Shown here in pieces: positions 1,598-12,631 of a stretch of 64,000 nt of DNA. Position 1 is the stretch's first letter. Each line of letters opens with the position of its first letter. Source of the DNA: Candidatus Poribacteria bacterium (GTDB taxonomy: Bacteria > Poribacteria > WGA-4E > WGA-3G). The translations under genes were made by a program, and so were the position numbers. The notes beneath the pieces are model-generated. The model searched no databases and was not told the origin of the DNA. It saw nothing but the letters and a program-made list of their open reading frames with translations. Location: NCBI GenBank assembly GCA_965215265.1, contig OZ244048.1:1344001-1408000 (forward strand). The letters are read 5' to 3'.

Positions 1598-2239
1598 CTA
1601 TTCTTTCTCTTTCAATACACCGATATAGAGCAGCGCAGCGAGCACTGCACCGATGCACGGACCGACAAAATAGAGCCAGATGTCAGCATAATTGCCGCTA
1701 ACAATCGCAGGCCCTAACGTCCGTGCAGGATTCAGCGAAGCACGCGTCAGCGGACCGCCCATCAAGATGCATAAGACCAACGTTAAACCGATCGCCAGCC
1801 CTGCGAAGTTGCCCGCTTTTCCACTCACGGCAGTGTTGAAAATCGTATTGACGAGGAAGAAGGTGAGCACGATTTCGACGATGAGCCCTTGAACGGGGGT
1901 TACGCCCTCACTTAATATTGTCACACCGAGGTCACCTGCCTCCGGCAGAACCGCGTTAAGCAAGACTGCACCTAAAATTCCGCCTATAAACTGCGCAAGC
2001 CAGTAACCGATCGCCGCCACAAATTCTATTTCGCCTGCAATCAGCAGGCCGAGCGTCACGGCAGGGTTGATGTGTGTACCGGAGATGTGCCCATACGCGT
2101 AAGCGAATACAACAATCACTAAGCCGTGTGCAAGCGCAACCCCGACTAAATTCGCCTCGGTTATTGCCAACGCACCCGCACCGATAAAAATCAACGCGAA
2201 GGTACCGATAAATTCTGCTACTAAATTTTTTGTGTTCAT
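1598..2239 (-). CDS. MIP family channel (aquaporin)
   Basis: AEFIGTF, HISGTHINPAVT and SLNPART (two NPA motifs); six hydrophobic helices. Confidence 0.95.
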   Translation of the reverse strand: MNTKNLVAEFIGTFALIFIGAGALAITEANLVGVALAHGLVIVVFAYAYGHISGTHINPAVTLGLLIAGEIEFVAAIGYWLAQFIGGILGAVLLNAVLPEAGDLGVTILSEGVTPVQGLIVEIVLTFFLVNTIFNTAVSGKAGNFAGLAIGLTLVLCILMGGPLTRASLNPARTLGPAIVSGNYADIWLYFVGPCIGAVLAALLYIGVLKEKE

Positions 2240-2422
2240 GAAAACCTCCTCTTGGAGTGTAAACTTCCTGTTTTACGTTACATTTGAAAATTGAACCCCG
2301 TTTTATTTATAGCAAAATTGCAATTTTCAGTCAATAGAATTTCGCTTGCAATCTGCTCCAAAATGCGATATAATAACGCAAAACAATTAAGTCTTGTGAC
2401 ATTGTAAAGATGGAAAGGTGTA

Positions 2423-3301
2423 ATGGCGACTGATAACACAACAACCGAACACAATTTTCTTGATCCTGTCTTCAAAGAAGTTTTGACAGCTAACTTCGGG
2501 CAACTCGCCATCCCTATCCAAACACAAGTGGAGGTGAGCCGGCTCCCACGCACCATCGATGCGCTGCTCGTCTTGGAAACCGCTCAACAGCGCGAGAGAG
2601 TTCAGACGCAAACCGCTTTCAACTATTTCCGCCGCTACAATCAGATTGAATTCAAAGGCAAAGCCGATGCTCTCACACGAGACGGATACCACCTCATTCG
2701 TGGGCGCAGCCACCTCTACCTGGCCGAGCAGAAACTCTCGGCAGCTGACATGACGGTGACAATCGTCTCCGCGCGTCAACCCAGAAGCGTGTTGAACCGC
2801 TGCCCATCTGATGTGAGGTGGGACTCCGTAGGTATCGGGCATTATCAAAGCACGGACTTATTGCCTGTGAACCTATTTGTGTGTAATGAATTGGAACTGG
2901 TGGCGAAAAATTACCCTCTGCTGCTCTTTGCCTCGTCCAAACGGAAGTTTTACCAGTTTGTCGAGCAGCTCATCGGCGAGGATAATCTGGCTTACCTCTC
3001 CTATGCGGCACGCGTAGCGCCAGAAATCACAATGGAGGTCTTCAAAATGGCAAAAAGAGAGAATTTATACGATAAACAGCTCCGGCGGATTATTGATGTC
3101 ATGGGCCCGGACTTGCTCAAAAAAATGACACCCCAAGAAAGGTTTCAAGGCATGACACCGGGAGAGAGGCTTGAGGGCATGACACTTCAAGAACGGCTTG
3201 AGGGCATGACACTTCAAGAACGGCTAGCTGGGCTGAGTTCAGAAGATTTACGCTCCTTAGACCCGGAAACCAAAGCAGAACTCCTGAAGTTGTTAACCTA
3301 A
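2423..3301 (+). CDS. PD-(D/E)XK nuclease-like (Rpn-related) protein with C-terminal 9-aa tandem repeats
   Basis: D.F.K N-terminus, IDALL and IEFKG motifs; clear paralog of 28567-29727; ERLEGMTLQ repeats. Confidence 0.7.
   Translation: MATDNTTTEHNFLDPVFKEVLTANFGQLAIPIQTQVEVSRLPRTIDALLVLETAQQRERVQTQTAFNYFRRYNQIEFKGKADALTRDGYHLIRGRSHLYLAEQKLSAADMTVTIVSARQPRSVLNRCPSDVRWDSVGIGHYQSTDLLPVNLFVCNELELVAKNYPLLLFASSKRKFYQFVEQLIGEDNLAYLSYAARVAPEITMEVFKMAKRENLYDKQLRRIIDVMGPDLLKKMTPQERFQGMTPGERLEGMTLQERLEGMTLQERLAGLSSEDLRSLDPETKAELLKLLT
3125..3232 (+). repeat. 4 x 27-bp coding tandem repeat (MTLQERLEG)
   Basis: atgacacttcaagaacggcttgagggc-type units read directly. Confidence 0.9.
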
Positions 3302-3439
3302 TTAGACGAAACCGCCCAGCAAAAATAGATTGCCCTTCTTACTCACCTCTCCTACTTTTTGTAGAAGGCTGATAAGAAAAGGGCTTGGAAATTTGACTCA
3401 GGGCACCGCGTTATCAAGTGCACACTCGCTGCCGCTGCT

Positions 3440-4096
3440 TTCGTAACGTTTTTAAAATAGGCAATCAGGCAGCAGGCATAATTTACCGGTTCCCCATGGG
3501 CGTTTTCTGCCGTCCCAATACGCAGCACGGGCCCTAGCCAATACGCAGCACGGGCCCGAGACGGATAAAATCCTGATTCCTGGCCGGTGAGGTCTTCGAC
3601 ACGGAAGGGCATTGAGCTAGGGGTGGAGGTCCCAGAGCAGCACGGTGCCGTCCCGACTCCAACTTGTGAGAGCGCTGCCATCTGGGCTGAACGCTACGCT
3701 CCTGACATCATCCGTATGCTCTATGAGGGTTCGGACGGGTTCGCCTATGTTGACATCCTAGAGACGAACGGTTTTGTCCGAACTAGCACTAGCGAGCGTG
3801 CTACCATCTGGGCTGAACGCTACGCTCCTGACATCATCCGTATGCGCTGTGAGTAGGTCGTGCGGCTCACCGCTCTCCGCATCATACAGCCAAATACCGA
3901 TACTACTTGCCACTGCAAGCTGCGACCCATCCGGCGGATACTGCACTTCATTTATCTCACCTTTACCGAGACGCGCAATCGCACCCTCCGGTAAACCCAA
4001 CTGCGTCTCCGCCGGATACTGACGCGACACAACCGGTAGAAAAACACTTGACAAGGTAACACTTAAAAAACAGAATAACGTTAAGCACTTTTTCAT
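3440..4096 (-). pseudogene. Collapsed secreted WD40-repeat protein with C-terminal sorting-domain remnant
   Basis: SD AAGGAG plus MKKCLTLF signal peptide, [40 protein letters not shown] (stop at the WD position), a second WD unit 126 bp away, then GFYPSRARAAYW disrupted by a 23-bp tandem duplication at 3515-3557. Confidence 0.8.
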
Positions 4097-4195
4097 CTTA
4101 CTCCTTCCATTGACTGTTTTTTGCCTGCATGCCGCAAGCTGCTTTCTTTCCAGTTTACCACTTGCCTTATGCTCCGTTAATAGCTCTTTTGCCAT

Positions 4196-4273
4196 AAGGA
4201 AATACTCCTTTGGGCGTGACTGACAAGGTTTCTAGCACAGATACGCCACTATCGTCCCTACCAGCAACTCACC
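4196..4273. repeat. Dispersed ~80-bp intergenic repeat, copy 1 (copy 2 at 11161-11241)
   Basis: Shared gtgactgacaaggtttctag.acagatacgcc...taccagc..aactcacc. Confidence 0.75.
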
Positions 4274-4308
4274 CGAAAAAATAGGGGTAGGGGAGAATAG
4301 GTTTTGGC

Positions 4309-4337
4309 TTGACAAATTTCGACTGATATGATACACT
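4309..4337 (+). promoter_or_regulatory. Sigma-70 promoter of the cupin gene
   Basis: TTGACA-17 nt-TACACT with an extended -10 TG. Confidence 0.6.
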
Positions 4338-4366
4338 GGTAAAAAAAAGAGTAAGGTACTATTATT

Positions 4367-4672
4367 ATGGCAAGCACAGTGAGAAATGATATCAAAGGAA
4401 TAGGGCGCTTTATTTTTGAAGCAGGCGCAGATCCACAGCAGCTACATCTCCATATTTCCGAGGTGGAGCCCGGCACGCGCGCACATCCACCGCATCAGCA
4501 CGACGGACAGGAGATTTTCTACGTTTTTTCCGGTCGAGGTGAAGTACTCTTTGGTAAACACACGCACCTGTTGACTGATAACCAGGCCATCCAGGTGGAC
4601 TGTCGTGTGCTGCACGGCATCCGGAATGTTGGCCAAACACCACTCCGGTACGCTGTCATTATCGCACGATGA
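4367..4672 (+). CDS. Cupin domain protein
   Basis: HPPHQHDGQEIFYVFSGRG and HGIRN cupin motifs. Confidence 0.9.
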   Translation: MASTVRNDIKGIGRFIFEAGADPQQLHLHISEVEPGTRAHPPHQHDGQEIFYVFSGRGEVLFGKHTHLLTDNQAIQVDCRVLHGIRNVGQTPLRYAVIIAR

Positions 4673-4696
4673 ATATACCGATATAAGGGAGACTGT

Positions 4697-5152
4697 CTAT
4701 TCCGTCTGATTGTTTTGAAGCTCTGTCCACAATTTGTATAGACCATTTATGCCACCTGCGATGAGAATAATCCCTGCGGCTGCTACAGCACGCCGGATCC
4801 ATAGCGGTTGTAAGTACTCCGGGAGACCCACCGAAATCCAATTCGGTTGCAGAAACGGAGAAAGGGCGATATTCAGATAAAGCGCCCCATAGGCGATATA
4901 ACTTAAGTCGCTCGCTAGCTCCTGTTTGTTACCAGTCACCGGCAGCCTAAATACGTTAATCAGATAGTCACCCGCGAAAATCAACGTCAAGCCTATCAGT
5001 AGAAAAGCACACAACGTCCATAGAGAATACGTGCCACGTCTCAGTGTCACTGATAGCACAATGCTCAGACCTCCCAACGCAACACTAACCAGCCCTTGTA
5101 TAATTTGAAAACTCCTATTCTCTGATACCATTTTCCTCCTTCGCTTACTCAA
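4697..5152 (-). CDS. Hypothetical membrane protein (4 TM)
   Basis: Four hydrophobic segments; directly downstream of the permease; start may be 5130. Confidence 0.65.
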   Translation of the reverse strand: MSKRRRKMVSENRSFQIIQGLVSVALGGLSIVLSVTLRRGTYSLWTLCAFLLIGLTLIFAGDYLINVFRLPVTGNKQELASDLSYIAYGALYLNIALSPFLQPNWISVGLPEYLQPLWIRRAVAAAGIILIAGGINGLYKLWTELQNNQTE

Positions 5153-6125
5153 ATCGAATCCGCGGGTCCACTAAAGTGTAACTTATGTCTGTTAGCAGCA
5201 AGCCCACAATATACAGTAACGCCCCCAAATATACCATGCTCCGAACGATTGCGAAATCTTGTGCTTGAATCGCTTCTATCGTAAAACTTCCAAGTCCCGG
5301 AATCGCGAAAAATGCCTCCATCACCAGGCTCCCTACAAACAGAAACGGAATCGCTAACACAACATTGGTCAATATCGGTATCATGGCGTTTTTGAGCGCA
5401 TGCTTGAACAGCACAACCCCCTCGCTCATCCCTTTCGCACGTGCGGTCCGAACATAGTCCTGATTCACTTCCTCTAGAAATATAGTTCGATAAAAACGGA
5501 TACCGCCCCCTATACCGCTGATGATGCCGATAATTACCGGAAGAATCACGAATTTCAGCAGATGCACCCCCGAATCATACCCGGAGATGGGGAACAGACG
5601 CAACATCTTACCAAACAACCATTGACCTCCGATTATGTAGAATAACTGCGAGATAGACATCACGATCACCGCGGCGATTGTCCCCCAGAAATCAACGTAG
5701 GTGGCACGGTAGTACGCCACGATCATTGAGACGGTAATATTCACGCATAAGCCAATCACGAACGTAGGAAGCGCTATTGTGAGGCTCGGCCACATACGTT
5801 GCAAAATTTGAGAAGTTATGTCGACGTTGTTGGTATCTGAAGTACCGAAATCAAATAGAAAGAGTTTTGCCGATTTCTGAAAAAAAAGCGTCTCTGTGAA
5901 TTTGGCGACACCCGAGGCCCCCGGATTAATGAACAGCGGGAGATGGTAACCGTTTTGCCGCTTCCAATTCTCAACATCTTCTTGTGTGATATTCTTTTCG
6001 CCCAGCATCGTCCGTGCCATGCTATCCGGCGAATTGACGATGAAGAACAGCAAAAACACAATCAGGTTCACGCCGATTAAAATCGGAATCGCGTACAGAG
6101 TTCGCCGGATAATGTAGGTTAGCAT
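5145..6125 (-). CDS. Peptide/nickel ABC transporter permease (DppB/OppB family)
   Basis: MLTYIIRR N-terminus; DYVRTARAKG..E..V..KHALKNA EAA loop; DPRIR C-terminus. Confidence 0.93.
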   Translation of the reverse strand: MLTYIIRRTLYAIPILIGVNLIVFLLFFIVNSPDSMARTMLGEKNITQEDVENWKRQNGYHLPLFINPGASGVAKFTETLFFQKSAKLFLFDFGTSDTNNVDITSQILQRMWPSLTIALPTFVIGLCVNITVSMIVAYYRATYVDFWGTIAAVIVMSISQLFYIIGGQWLFGKMLRLFPISGYDSGVHLLKFVILPVIIGIISGIGGGIRFYRTIFLEEVNQDYVRTARAKGMSEGVVLFKHALKNAMIPILTNVVLAIPFLFVGSLVMEAFFAIPGLGSFTIEAIQAQDFAIVRSMVYLGALLYIVGLLLTDISYTLVDPRIRFE

Positions 6126-8691: not shown

Positions 8692-9768
8692 TTAAAATGC
8701 GTGGAGTATAGTTAAAGAGATTAAAGGACCGAATTTAAACGCATCGCTTTCTTCGTACGTGCCGTCTAAAAGTGCCTCGCTATCGTCATAAAGCGTTTCT
8801 TGCGTCAACGGCAACATGAACGTAGCCGATAACGACATATTAGAAGGCACTGCTACAGATGCCCCTAAGGATGCCATGCTGAAACGGAGCCCGGTATTAA
8901 TGTCTTGTTCGCCTGCCCAATAGGCGTAAGATTGATAAAACCCCTGATAACTCGCCTGAACCGACACACGCTCAAAGAGGTGATAATTCAAGCCCGCAGT
9001 GTAGGTGAGCCCGCGAGAGCCGCGATAGGTTTTGCTGTTTTCATAGAACGGCAGCTTCCCGCGCAGTGAAGCACTCACGGATAGGCCGCCGTAGAGCGGA
9101 ATTCCATAATGCACCTCAGCAATCGGGTTAAAGGTACCCGTGCCGAATTGGATGTGCAGATGCTCAAGCCCATTATCACCGAGCATCCACGGGTCTTCTT
9201 CCGTTTTTCCGAGCGGCACCGTCGTACCGAGGCGTGTCAATAACAGGTCGTCACTTTTAAAGATGCCTTGGAACTTATGTCCTAGCAGCATATCCATATC
9301 CGTTAAACCTGTATAGGTCTCATTTCTATGGTGAATATCCCTATTGCGTTCAATCGCTTGCAAGTCTGCCGACGTGACCGGCTCAATTTCCTCAACCGTT
9401 GCGCTTTGTTCCTTAAGTTCATACGGGATATTTGCTTCCAGGGTCCACCGTGTGTTAAGGTTGTATTTCAAACCGACATTAACACGGAAGATATTTAAAG
9501 TCACGTGGTGCCTATGCAACGGTACATCGATAACACTTCCATCCGAAGCGAGCCCTTTTGTCTCAAGATGTCCGCCCTCGGCGTCGAACCAACGCATCAT
9601 GCTGAAAGATGCCTGGAATCGCTTCGCTTCTTCTGAAGTCAAACTGACTTCACCTATCCCGCCACGTGGGATCGCGGGATTACTTCAGGCACCTCAGCTA
9701 TCCTGGGCGAATCCGATCAGGAGCGTCATCAATTGCATTATCAGCATTGCCAACACGATTTTTTGCAT
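8692..9768 (-). CDS. Secreted/outer-membrane protein with two in-frame UGA codons (U25, U28); candidate selenoprotein
   Basis: SD GGAG plus ATG at 9768, signal peptide MQKIVLAMLIMQLMTLLIGFA, then QDS-TGA-G-A-TGA-SNP in frame with track ORF 8692-9642; amphipathic beta-strand-like body ending in F. Confidence 0.7.
9656..9680 (-). promoter_or_regulatory. Candidate bacterial SECIS hairpin
   Basis: mRNA AUCCCGC-GAUCCCACGUG-GCGGGAU stem starting 4 nt after the second UGA; loop begins with G. Confidence 0.45.
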
Positions 9769-9804
9769 GTTTTTCTCCGTAAGTGTTTTTTGGTGCACAG
9801 TTAT

Positions 9805-10755
9805 TCATAGCGGTGAATCTTCACGCTGTAGATTTAGCCATTCCATTTCCGAATCGGTGAGGTGCAGTGCTAATGCATCGACGGAAGAACGCATCTCGTC
9901 CAAGTCTGCCGGCCCAATGATCGGGAAGATCGGGAACGGCAGCTGTACGACGTACGCAAGTGAAACCTGAATAGCGGATGAGTTGTATTTTTTCGCCAGT
10001 TTAGTGGCGCGGGCGAGCCTCTCAAAATTATCTGTGTTGTAATACACACGCACCATATCCCGGTTATCTCGTTTCTCTGGTGTCCACGCACCGCCGAAAA
10101 AACCTCTCGCTTGCGAAGACCACGGCATCAATGGAAATTGGTTTTCCTGATGCCAACTCCGTCCTGCTTCATCAACGCATACGCAACCGCCCCACATCGG
10201 CTCCATCGGGACAGCGAGACTAATGTTATTGCTACAAGAGACAAAACCGTGCAACCCGTTGGCAGACGCGTAGCTGTTGGCGGCGGTAATCCGTTCTGGA
10301 TGCCAATTGGAGGCCGATATCGCACGAATCCGGCCCGCACTCATTTCATGATTCAGATAGTCGATAATCGTGCTAACCGGTATGACCGGGTCATCGCGAT
10401 GCAGCATATAGAGATCTATATACGAGGTACGTAGCCGGATGAGGCTTTCGTCCAAGTCGCGTTTTAGCTCTTCCGGTGACAATCTCGGACGAGGAACTCT
10501 GCCGTTTGGATGCCCGCCTTTATCTATGAGGAAAACGGCATCGCGGTTCTGTCGTTGTTGCATCCACAAACCGATTAACATTTCACTGCTGCCCCCACCG
10601 TAACCGTGTGCCGTGTCAAGCGCGTTCCCACCCGCATCACAGAACGCGTCCAGCAGGCGAGTACTATGTTCATATTGCACTGGCGACAGCATCATCGTCC
10701 CCAGAATTAACTGTGAAATCTCTTTGCTAACCCCAGGAATTTTTATCTGATTCAT
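9805..10755 (-). CDS. Aldo/keto reductase
   Basis: LILGT, DTAHGYG, SLIRLRTSYIDLYMLHRDD, PWSSQARG, PIIGP. Confidence 0.93.
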   Translation of the reverse strand: MNQIKIPGVSKEISQLILGTMMLSPVQYEHSTRLLDAFCDAGGNALDTAHGYGGGSSEMLIGLWMQQRQNRDAVFLIDKGGHPNGRVPRPRLSPEELKRDLDESLIRLRTSYIDLYMLHRDDPVIPVSTIIDYLNHEMSAGRIRAISASNWHPERITAANSYASANGLHGFVSCSNNISLAVPMEPMWGGCVCVDEAGRSWHQENQFPLMPWSSQARGFFGGAWTPEKRDNRDMVRVYYNTDNFERLARATKLAKKYNSSAIQVSLAYVVQLPFPIFPIIGPADLDEMRSSVDALALHLTDSEMEWLNLQREDSPL

Positions 10756-11482: not shown

Positions 11483-12631
11483 CTATAGTTCTAACGCCTG
11501 TAGGAATGCTTCAAAACTGTCGGCTTTGACGGCTGTCAGCAGCAGCTGCTCGAGGTGTTCGAGGTTAGAAAGGGTTTCGAGTTGCTGCGTGGCAGTGTGT
11601 ATGTCACAATGAGGGAATCGCGCATTGAGGACGGCGGTTATATTTTTGATAGCATTCTGGCACGCCCCTCGCTCAATCCCTTCTTCTCTCCCTTGTTCTC
11701 TCCCTTGTTCTCTCCCTTGTTCTATGCCTCGTTCTATGCCTTGTTCTATGCCTCGTTCTATGCCTTGTGCTATGCCTCGTTCGAAGAGGAATTCGGCCAT
11801 TGTCTCTGCCATCGGTGCTACCTCCATGTCACTCGTATGCCGGTCTATCAACTCTATCAACTCTTCTTGTTCTTCCTTTGAACGCTGATGCTGAATCAGC
11901 AACACCAGATACATTATCGCTTCCCTACGCTGCCCGGAATCGACTGCATCAAGCGTCTCCAGCTGCGTCAAAGTCTCTCGTAACGCGCGGCTTATAGACG
12001 CTTTGTCCGAATCTTTTTGTTGAAGCACTCTCATCAGCCACCCGAATGGATGCGCCGCCTCTGTCAGCGTCGCCTTGTCTGTGCCTTTCAGATTCAGAAA
12101 CAGGATGTCAAATCTCGGAACGAATCTAGAGAGCGCCGCGGGCAAATTCATCATCGCCTCAAGTGTCAGTGGCTTCTCCCACCGCCGCTCCCCTGTGTAA
12201 AACACCACGGGCAAAATCGGCGGCAATACACGCTCACTTCTCGGCACCTTCTCTGCCGCCCACCGCCGCCGCTCTGCGTCCCAAATTAGCATCATGTAGA
12301 AAAGCACACGAAACCCCATCGTCGCATCTACCGTCGATTGATGTTCAATCAGCAGATAGATGAGCAGCTCTGCCGCACCCTCATCACCATCACTTTTGAA
12401 GGGCACCCGATATACAATGTCTGCCTCTTGTTCTCGGAGAGTGGCGGGCAGCAGACTCCTATTCATTGGAACCAGCTGCTCAAAGTCAATCAACGCGGCG
12501 AGTTCTGCCGCAACGAGTTCTAACAAGCCCCGGACGTTTTCCTTGTTTTCTAATAAGCGGCGTATACTCCGATCGGAAAAGTTCGCAACAGACATCTCGG
12601 ACAAAAAGTCGTGGATGTCCTTCTTCTGCAT
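11483..12631 (-). CDS. Rpn/YhgA-like recombination-promoting nuclease (PD-(D/E)XK, transposase_31 family)
   Basis: EADIVY, YLLIEHQSTVD..MGFR, LPPILPVVFYTG..W motifs; GIEQG/GREQG C-terminal repeats. Confidence 0.9.
   Translation of the reverse strand: MQKKDIHDFLSEMSVANFSDRSIRRLLENKENVRGLLELVAAELAALIDFEQLVPMNRSLLPATLREQEADIVYRVPFKSDGDEGAAELLIYLLIEHQSTVDATMGFRVLFYMMLIWDAERRRWAAEKVPRSERVLPPILPVVFYTGERRWEKPLTLEAMMNLPAALSRFVPRFDILFLNLKGTDKATLTEAAHPFGWLMRVLQQKDSDKASISRALRETLTQLETLDAVDSGQRREAIMYLVLLIQHQRSKEEQEELIELIDRHTSDMEVAPMAETMAEFLFERGIAQGIERGIEQGIERGIEQGREQGREQGREEGIERGACQNAIKNITAVLNARFPHCDIHTATQQLETLSNLEHLEQLLLTAVKADSFEAFLQALEL
11664..11783 (-). repeat. 12-bp coding tandem repeat (GIEQ/GIER/GREQ, about 10 units)
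   Basis: ccttgttctatg / ccttgttctctc units. Confidence 0.9.

Follow-up and report, generated by a model that had tools for sequence, protein, structure and literature searches.

A candidate double-selenocysteine outer-membrane barrel, conserved and systematically mis-annotated in Poribacteria

We asked whether a reading frame interrupted by two stop codons in a Poribacteria genome is the remnant of a gene or an intact gene whose stops are read as amino acids. The frame lies on the reverse strand, at positions 8692-9768 of a stretch of 64,000 nucleotides (nt) of Candidatus Poribacteria bacterium DNA (contig OZ244048.1, positions 1,344,001 to 1,408,000; hereafter the window, whose numbering is used unless another contig is named). 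The original prediction, made from the letters of this stretch, proposed that it encodes an exported protein with two selenocysteines (Sec) spaced as in a CxxC motif. The analysis reported here showed that 8692-9768 is one intact gene for an exported protein. Comparison with relatives indicates that codons 25 and 28, both UGA, are very probably decoded as Sec in what is predicted to be an outer-membrane barrel.

One gene across two in-frame TGA codons

Under translation table 11, open reading frame (ORF) finding returned only a truncated frame starting at a TTG. Followed upstream from the TAA that ends it, that frame crosses two TGA codons and no other stop before reaching an ATG at 9766-9768. 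The features of the gene are the following.

8692..9768, reverse strand: complete barrel gene, 358-residue precursor, TAA stop at 8692-8694 (sequence read; same layout in 30 orthologue loci)
8692..9642, reverse strand: truncated ORF under table 11, 316 residues, TTG start, without signal peptide or Sec motif (ORF finding)
9775..9778, reverse strand: Shine-Dalgarno-like GGAG, 6 nt 5' of the ATG (direct sequence reading)
9706..9768, reverse strand: signal peptide, residues 1-21, predicted cleavage after G-F-A (sequence and 30/30 orthologues)
9694..9696, reverse strand: UGA1, residue 25, putatively read as Sec (Sec or Cys in relatives)
9685..9687, reverse strand: UGA2, residue 28, putatively read as Sec (TGA in 55/55 genes inspected; Cys in uninterrupted homologues)

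The precursor thus laid out begins with a signal peptide, made of a basic residue, a hydrophobic stretch and then G-F-A / Q-D-S, continues with Q-D-S-U-G-A-U-S-N-P, in which the two UGAs are separated by about 6-9 nt, and ends with a His-rich body carrying HRHH, IHH and EHLH motifs and a terminal F, as translated. The cleavage site was placed from an A-x-A-like pattern, without a predictor. Start codon, GGAG, clean signal peptide ahead of Q-D-S, both TGAs, histidine motifs, terminal F and the truncated table-11 frame were all found where the original prediction had put them.

The two stops are present in independently assembled DNA. Contigs from three runs of three studies cover positions 9500-9900, and TGA1 and TGA2 are identical in all of them, with two of the three contigs near-identical and possibly representing the source sample; those of run X8 lie outside the TGA sites. 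One strain (the X6 contig) differs by seven substitutions near the site, one of which changes the ATG to GTG, still a valid start.

We also looked for the gene in relatives. A six-frame search of 41 related genomes found it in 37, nearly all full-length matches containing two TGAs, together with one paralogous group containing one. A profile of 29 orthologues then recovered it in 140 of 176 phylum genomes, every one of them within a single order. By family, it was present in 111/111 genomes of f1, 11/11 of f2, 7/7 of f4 and 10/29 of f3, and in none of the 17 genomes of the other seven families. Among the 150 matches listed in this search (99 more lay beyond them), 148 contained two TGAs, one contained one and one contained three, and the two codons are kept at 37-72% protein identity across the order. 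The TGAs are therefore conserved in close relatives, as anticipated, and the earlier argument that two chance nonsense mutations would hardly give this pattern holds as well, since both codons are kept in those 148 matches; the recurrence of the pattern in the sequences compared is far beyond chance. One orthologue (G024:C5:4400-5479, L028/L092) has a third in-frame TGA, at a Trp conserved in the others, which may reflect an error of sequencing, a decaying gene or one more recoded codon.

The N-termini were read in 55 genes, a set of 30 and a further set of 25, and each of them runs from a signal peptide into [U/C]-x-x-U-[S/T]-N-P. All 55 have TGA at the second position; at the first, TGA occurs in 41 and Cys (TGC or TGT) in 14, giving 41 U-x-x-U and 14 C-x-x-U proteins. 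The Cys-first genes comprise one C-G-A-U orthologue, one C-S-A-U and twelve C-P-A-U paralogues, one of which belongs to the genome under study (C1:2131528-2132559). Signal peptide and start codon were kept in 30/30 orthologues.

Public annotation misses this part of the protein. All of the 120 best relatives listed from a database clustered at 90% cover only 84-91% of the query, with the N-terminus absent, and where a source name is given it is 'hypothetical protein' from Candidatus Poribacteria. The gene is thus called, in those 120 entries, without its signal peptide and its probable active site, and because of this omission an abundant, order-wide protein of sponge-associated Poribacteria is left mislocalised and functionally blank.

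Could the locus still be a pseudogene, or two ORFs produced by chance nonsense mutations or an assembly error? Table-11 callers see only the truncated ORF, and the third TGA of the G024 orthologue may be a trace of damage. Against this stand the conservation of the same two TGAs at such divergence, the signal peptide and start codon of all 30 orthologues, and the identity of independent contigs at both codons. Moreover, barrel proteins need a signal peptide in order to get to the outer membrane. Decay or misassembly was rejected on conservation and on the independent contigs, and we consider it barely credible.

Evidence for selenocysteine and the downstream hairpins

If the UGAs are decoded as Sec, homologues that are not interrupted should have Cys at the same columns. 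A profile search of 1.84 billion representative sequences gave 443 matches at E <=0.001, and 16 of the 150 matches listed reached the N-terminus (profile start position <=23). Results showed eleven full-length uninterrupted homologues with C-P-A-C, C-A-G-C, C-A-A-C or C-S-G-C, then x-N-P, after a signal peptide, and three fragments with C-P-A-C or C-P-V-C. Two further database homologues show W at the positions where a TGA would be, most simply explained by a caller having translated TGA under another table. Both sites are thus Cys or Sec in homologues, as had been expected, and do not vary freely. Between Sec and Cys forms, which share 24-48% identity, the invariant residues are both Sec/Cys sites, N30, P31, H67, H87, H146, H147, R148, E150, H203, H205 and a few Gly and Pro, six of them being histidines.

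We then checked, as had been proposed, for selA, selB, selC and selD, and the genome has all four. The tRNA-Sec gene (selC) scores 80 bits (cut-off 47) and lies directly after selB, and selB (336.5 bits), selA (588.6 bits) and selD (359.6 bits) are above their curated cut-offs. The selD gene (L019, G000:C1:4044300-4045226), with its single in-frame TGA, encodes a selenoprotein in its turn; 11 nt past this codon starts a small hairpin whose loop is C-G-G-G-U. In addition, three exported HMA-domain proteins of the genome have an in-frame TGA in the metal-binding loop (G-M-T-U-G-A-C), with best NCBIfam matches to CopZ, MerP and UxxU-metal-binding models, all below cut-off.

G000:C1:2909770-2910198 (= L125:1276-1704): Sec-HMA gene, lipoprotein-like, in tandem with the next
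G000:C1:2910249-2910614: Sec-HMA gene, lipoprotein-like, second of the tandem
G000:C1:3279415-3280506: Sec WD40-HMA fusion gene

TGA is otherwise an ordinary stop in this genome (4.83 megabases), because it terminates 257 of the 1,265 stop-to-stop frames that run to 400 codons or more, and because 4 of the 30 orthologues end at TGA while also holding both internal TGAs.

Bacterial Sec insertion is directed by a hairpin in the mRNA, the Sec insertion sequence (SECIS), and two hairpins, both predicted by RNAalifold, follow the UGAs.

9656..9680, reverse strand: hairpin H1, 7-base-pair stem with arms 9674-9680 and 9656-9662, 11-nt loop (RNAalifold and covariation)
9634..9652, reverse strand: hairpin H2, 7-8-base-pair stem, G-U-U loop starting 40 nt past UGA2 (RNAalifold and covariation)

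H1 begins 4 nt past UGA2, which agrees with the 7-base-pair hairpin described earlier, and 13 nt past UGA1; the TTG of the truncated ORF falls inside H2. In 30 orthologues, 95.2% of the cells of the paired columns were paired, compared with 24-60% in controls slid along the alignment, and 5 of 14 pairs showed double-sided changes. None of 500 shuffles matched the observed percentage paired, pairs with double changes, cells with double changes or covariation score (four of the five measures); for the fifth, further pair types, 101 of 500 reached the observed value. After realignment of 45 genes to a covariance model, 90.8% of cells were paired (24-54% in slid controls), 7 of 14 pairs had double changes, and the 32 cells with double changes were reached by 0/500 shuffles. 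H2 was the better conserved, with 97.9-98.6% paired and 3-4 of 7 pairs compensatory. In divergent members both stems pair with different nucleotides encoding different amino acids, and the H2 loop contains G-U in every divergent member inspected.

Several results nevertheless count against a simple account of how these codons would be decoded. The published bacterial SECIS model has a loop of 3-9 nt, a stem of 4-16 base pairs, a G in the first two loop positions and a distance of 16-37 nt from the UGA. H1 lies 20 nt from UGA1, which fits, but its loop of 11 nt is too long and its distance from UGA2, 11 nt, too short. H2 agrees with the model in loop and stem, yet its distances from the two UGAs are 40 and 49 nt; in selD and the Sec-HMA genes of this genome the SECIS loop is 13-17 nt from the UGA. 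For the 45 genes, the number of pairs with double changes was reached by 23 of 500 shuffles, and as that alignment was fitted to the model and its sequences are related, its figures are supportive and are not probabilities. Finally, selA was found in 164 of the 176 phylum genomes, including lineages without the barrel, and because it is nearly universal in the phylum its co-occurrence with the barrel does not discriminate. In the C-P-A-U paralogues, which have a single UGA, H1 does fit the SECIS model, with 16-19-nt spacing and a 3-6-nt loop with G second. Two UGAs nine nt apart, followed by two covarying hairpins off the standard spacing, make a compact natural test of how SelB serves nearby Sec codons.

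These irregular hairpins, together with the W of the two database entries, are what can be said for UGAs being read by a near-cognate Trp, Cys or Gly tRNA, or for a local change of the code. This explanation is very improbable, considering that homologues have Cys at both columns and neither Trp nor Gly, that TGA ends so many long ORFs and some of the orthologues themselves, and that the Sec machinery is complete; a reassigned TGA was rejected on the stop-codon usage and the Cys homologues. Recoding to Sec is, on the sequences compared, as well supported as comparative genomics allows.

Predicted fold and genomic context

We modelled the protein with AlphaFold2 from a 29-sequence alignment and obtained a barrel of about 12 strands (mean predicted local distance difference test score, pLDDT, 74; predicted template-modelling score 0.72). 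The best Foldseek matches of the model were FapF (E 3.8e-13) and the COG4313 channel Pput2725 (PDB 4RL8; E 3e-12), followed by FadL-type channels, with target-normalised template-modelling (TM) scores of 0.68-0.74 for the best matches (0.68-0.72 for 4RL8). By sequence the relation falls below family cut-offs: PF13557, the COG4313 family, scored 18.0 bits for a gathering cut-off of 22, and was a precomputed match in 3 of the 120 clustered-database relatives listed; the only NCBIfam match, TIGR04565, reached 21.1 bits for a cut-off of 60; and the family profile gave 0 matches to PDB sequences at E up to 1. Taken with the 30/30 signal peptides, the model and its FapF and COG4313 matches support an outer-membrane barrel of that fold type, roughly 12 strands, in agreement with the exported barrel that had been proposed.

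The likeness to COG4313 proteins and the amyloid-secretion barrel FapF (5O65/5O67) lies in the predicted monomeric barrel of about 12 strands and, for Pput2725, in a sizeable N-terminal segment before strand 1; the 14 N-terminal residues of Pput2725 fold into the lumen from the periplasmic side. Those proteins have neither an N-terminal CxxC/UxxU, nor the invariant histidine set, nor Sec, and what they have been proposed to carry is hydrophobic molecules or unfolded amyloid subunits. Using the secondary-structure string alone, and assuming the usual periplasmic N-terminus of barrels, H67, H85 and H87 would be placed close to where strands 1-2 end on the outer side, with the H-H-R and H-x-H motifs falling in long predicted loops after strands 3 and 5.

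Distant homologues and Cys-type genes are found associated with metal and thiol proteins. The domain fused at the C-terminus is HMA in one homologue (E 5e-11) and, in four others, a thioredoxin that passes the Pfam cut-off and follows a His/Asp-rich linker; in a fifth, thioredoxin and cupredoxin-like matches stay below threshold. Four barrel homologues joined to a C-terminal thioredoxin by long His/Asp-rich linkers (P0213, P0224, P0227 and P0228) start with L or V in the database, their N-terminus being absent, and may have been cut at upstream TGAs. Searching with a 7-sequence alignment and the pattern C[PG]ACSNP, we collected 22 loci with Cys at both positions, all in metagenome-assembled genomes of Bacteroidota. 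In 20 of them a gene of 213-260 residues lies immediately upstream on the same strand, and the two such genes scanned individually are HMA-thioredoxin fusions. Among the 119 nearest ORFs of the 22 loci (three each side), we counted HMA 35 times, thioredoxin 20, MerT 10, ArsR-type 7, CsoR-type 5, multicopper oxidase 4 and P-type ATPase 3. MerA neighbours were found in two loci (501 and 514 bits, cut-off 454) and a MerTP fusion in one (285 bits, cut-off 180). In the two stretches L101:4127-8056 and L104:3919-8014, a MerP-like or MerTP gene is followed by MerA, an HMA-thioredoxin fusion and the Cys-type barrel.

The mer operons that include the Cys-type homologue are thus ordered MerTP - MerA - HMA-thioredoxin - barrel or HMA - MerA - HMA-thioredoxin - barrel, unlike the genome studied here, which has no MerT, and no MerA above cut-off. 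The available part of a 2021 survey of mer genes contains no outer-membrane Mer component, draws passage of the outer wall as diffusion, and mentions neither the HMA-thioredoxin fusion nor the Cys-type barrel gene. The place of Cys-type relatives in operons with MerA and MerTP points to an outer-membrane protein component of mercury handling.

In the window, the barrel gene stands between an aldo/keto reductase (AKR) gene and genes of an ATP-binding cassette (ABC) system, its stop being 13 nt ahead of the start of the family-5 binding protein gene.

9805..10755, reverse strand: AKR gene, PF00248 165.5 bits, 36 nt from the barrel start codon
6471..8678, reverse strand: family-5 ABC solute-binding protein gene, 735 residues, downstream (Pfam/NCBIfam)
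5145..6125, reverse strand: ABC permease gene, PF00528
4697..5152, reverse strand: 151-residue membrane protein gene, no known family (present in 7/15 loci)

Among 15 relative orthologue loci, the AKR gene is adjacent to the barrel in eight; five have the order AKR - barrel - binding protein - permease - 151-residue membrane protein, two have AKR - barrel - membrane protein and one AKR - barrel, and six distant loci share none of these genes. Where the ABC genes are absent, the 151-residue membrane protein gene directly follows the barrel; it has no Pfam family, and its protein atlas scores, 0.89 or lower, were uninformative. The 120 neighbours of 20 Poribacteria loci gave as commonest families AKR (8), family-5 binding protein (5) and permease (5). 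The proposed link to the family-5 ABC binding protein therefore stands as adjacency at 13 nt, and as a functional link it is weak, considering that the synteny is shared by only 5 of the 15 loci. All five paralogue loci, including the genome's own, have upstream of the barrel a Cys-rich exported protein of 173 residues, without Pfam family; this protein (L052:10950-11471, reverse strand), which has several Cys and Cys-Cys motifs, also adjoins one orthologue (L058).

Possible functions and relation to known selenoproteins

The explanation that we favour overall, and consider highly probable, is a Sec-decoded exported barrel, with a putative thiophilic-metal site. On its function part we are evenly divided: there is an even chance that the Sec/Cys pair and the histidine cluster serve to handle a thiophilic metal. 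Sec insertion itself, topology, the identity of the metal and the direction of transport are steps that we infer. In the proposed mechanism, UGA 25 and 28 would be decoded by SelB and tRNA-Sec, directed by the downstream mRNA hairpins; the signal peptide would be removed, leaving Q-D-S-U-G-A-U-S-N-P at the mature N-terminus; and the remainder would form an outer-membrane barrel of about 12 strands of FapF / COG4313 type. By standard barrel topology, the N-terminal selenol pair would face the periplasm or else reach up into the lumen, where the N-terminus of the solved COG4313 channel lies, and U-x-x-U with the histidine cluster would bind Hg(II), Cu(I) or a similar ion and relay it at the outer membrane or through it. 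Periplasmic partners in other phyla would be a reductant of thioredoxin type and an acceptor of HMA type. The metal or redox role guessed at first is supported indirectly, by the invariant histidines, by HMA and thioredoxin fusions of homologues, and by the mer-operon context of Cys forms in another phylum.

Other results weigh on the opposite side of the metal site. Model residues 13-46 have pLDDT below 50 and the N-terminal segment only 35-48; the 25 commonest families of the 120 neighbours of the 20 Poribacteria loci include neither HMA nor thioredoxin nor MerT; MerT, and MerA above cut-off, are absent from the genome, as mentioned; and the solved COG4313 channels are considered to carry hydrophobic molecules.

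A real double-selenoprotein barrel could also use its U-x-x-U as a redox centre, as a selenol/diselenide oxidoreductase or a redox gate of the outer membrane, and not as a metal ligand; its redox partners in other phyla would then be the thioredoxins. CxxC/UxxU spacing is the classic redox motif, and most of the selenoproteins catalogued in a 2026 review are redox proteins; four homologues end in thioredoxin, 20 of the 119 Bacteroidota neighbours are thioredoxin-type, and the Poribacteria loci have an AKR next door and no metal genes. We regard this as unlikely, though a serious competitor, because the gene upstream in 20 of 22 Bacteroidota loci is, in the two scanned, an HMA-thioredoxin fusion, some of these loci lie inside operons with MerA and MerTP, one homologue has an HMA domain alone, and six invariant histidines fit metal coordination better than disulfide exchange. 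The two roles are in any case compatible, as thioredoxin may simply keep a metal-binding dithiol reduced. A COG4313-like channel for hydrophobic or organic uptake, perhaps feeding the ABC importer and with the selenol pair as gate or sensor, would agree with the fold match to 4RL8, the weak PF13557 match, the binding protein and permease genes that follow the barrel here and in 5 relatives, and the lumen-inserted N-terminus of COG4313 channels, which have been implicated in hydrophobic uptake. This role is improbable: PF13557 stays below its cut-off, the ABC synteny is absent from 10 of the 15 relative orthologue loci, and the invariant histidines and the HMA, MerT and MerA context of homologues are left unexplained.

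Returning to the favoured metal site, a bolder version of it, which we put forward tentatively and hold to be doubtful, is that the barrel is an unrecognised outer-membrane step of thiophilic-metal trafficking, made with a tandem SECIS pair in which each hairpin would pre-load its own SelB complex. The histidine cluster, on the exterior or in the lumen, would capture Hg(II) or Cu(I), and a mobile N-terminal dithiol or diselenol arm would pass it on to HMA proteins of the periplasm, Sec-containing ones in the case of this genome. If true, the barrel would supply the outer-membrane component that mer systems lack, the relay of Poribacteria would be all-selenol, and the tandem SECIS arrangement would be outside the current bacterial SECIS model.

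We also compared the family with known selenoproteins. The May 2026 review lists in its Table 1 119 prokaryotic selenoprotein families or subfamilies, among them an MtrB/PioB-type barrel and a TonB-dependent receptor, as well as UxxU metal-binding, MerT and other metal-related selenoproteins. No family like the barrel was found among these 119 or in NCBIfam, and no description of it in the full-text literature searched, although supplementary tables of metagenomic selenoproteome surveys (refs 59-65 of PMC13188914) might list it generically. Exported barrel selenoproteins have a precedent, because the GSU2204 / MtrB-PioB barrel (NF041027) and the FCYXU-type TonB-dependent receptor (NF049945) are also Sec-containing outer-membrane barrels; they contain one Sec each, belong to other barrel classes with other motifs, and their models do not match our protein. 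The UxxU metal-binding family NF041115, Sec MerT and MerT/CopZ (PF02411, NF045683) follow the same U-x-x-U / C-x-x-U logic, with Sec replacing Cys in the soft-metal-binding CxxC of mercury and heavy-metal proteins, but they are small soluble HMA-fold or inner-membrane helical proteins, and the predicted barrel matches none of them. We conclude that this is a genuine new family, very probably of selenoproteins, conserved and systematically mis-annotated, which would add a double-Sec member to the two catalogued types of outer-membrane barrel selenoprotein and place two selenols in the oxidising cell envelope.

Finally, some features around the barrel deserve mention in their own right. The family-5 binding protein is unusually long, its Pfam domain beginning only at residue 189, with the N-terminal extension unexplained. 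About 0.7 kilobases beyond the AKR gene, just upstream of the operon, lies a YhgA-like putative transposase gene (PF04754, 99 bits; 11483-12631, reverse strand). Downstream of the gene for the 151-residue protein, the frames of positions 2200-4700 on the reverse strand show neither a second permease gene nor an ATPase gene of the ABC system; the same region holds WD40-like repeat fragments interrupted by stops.

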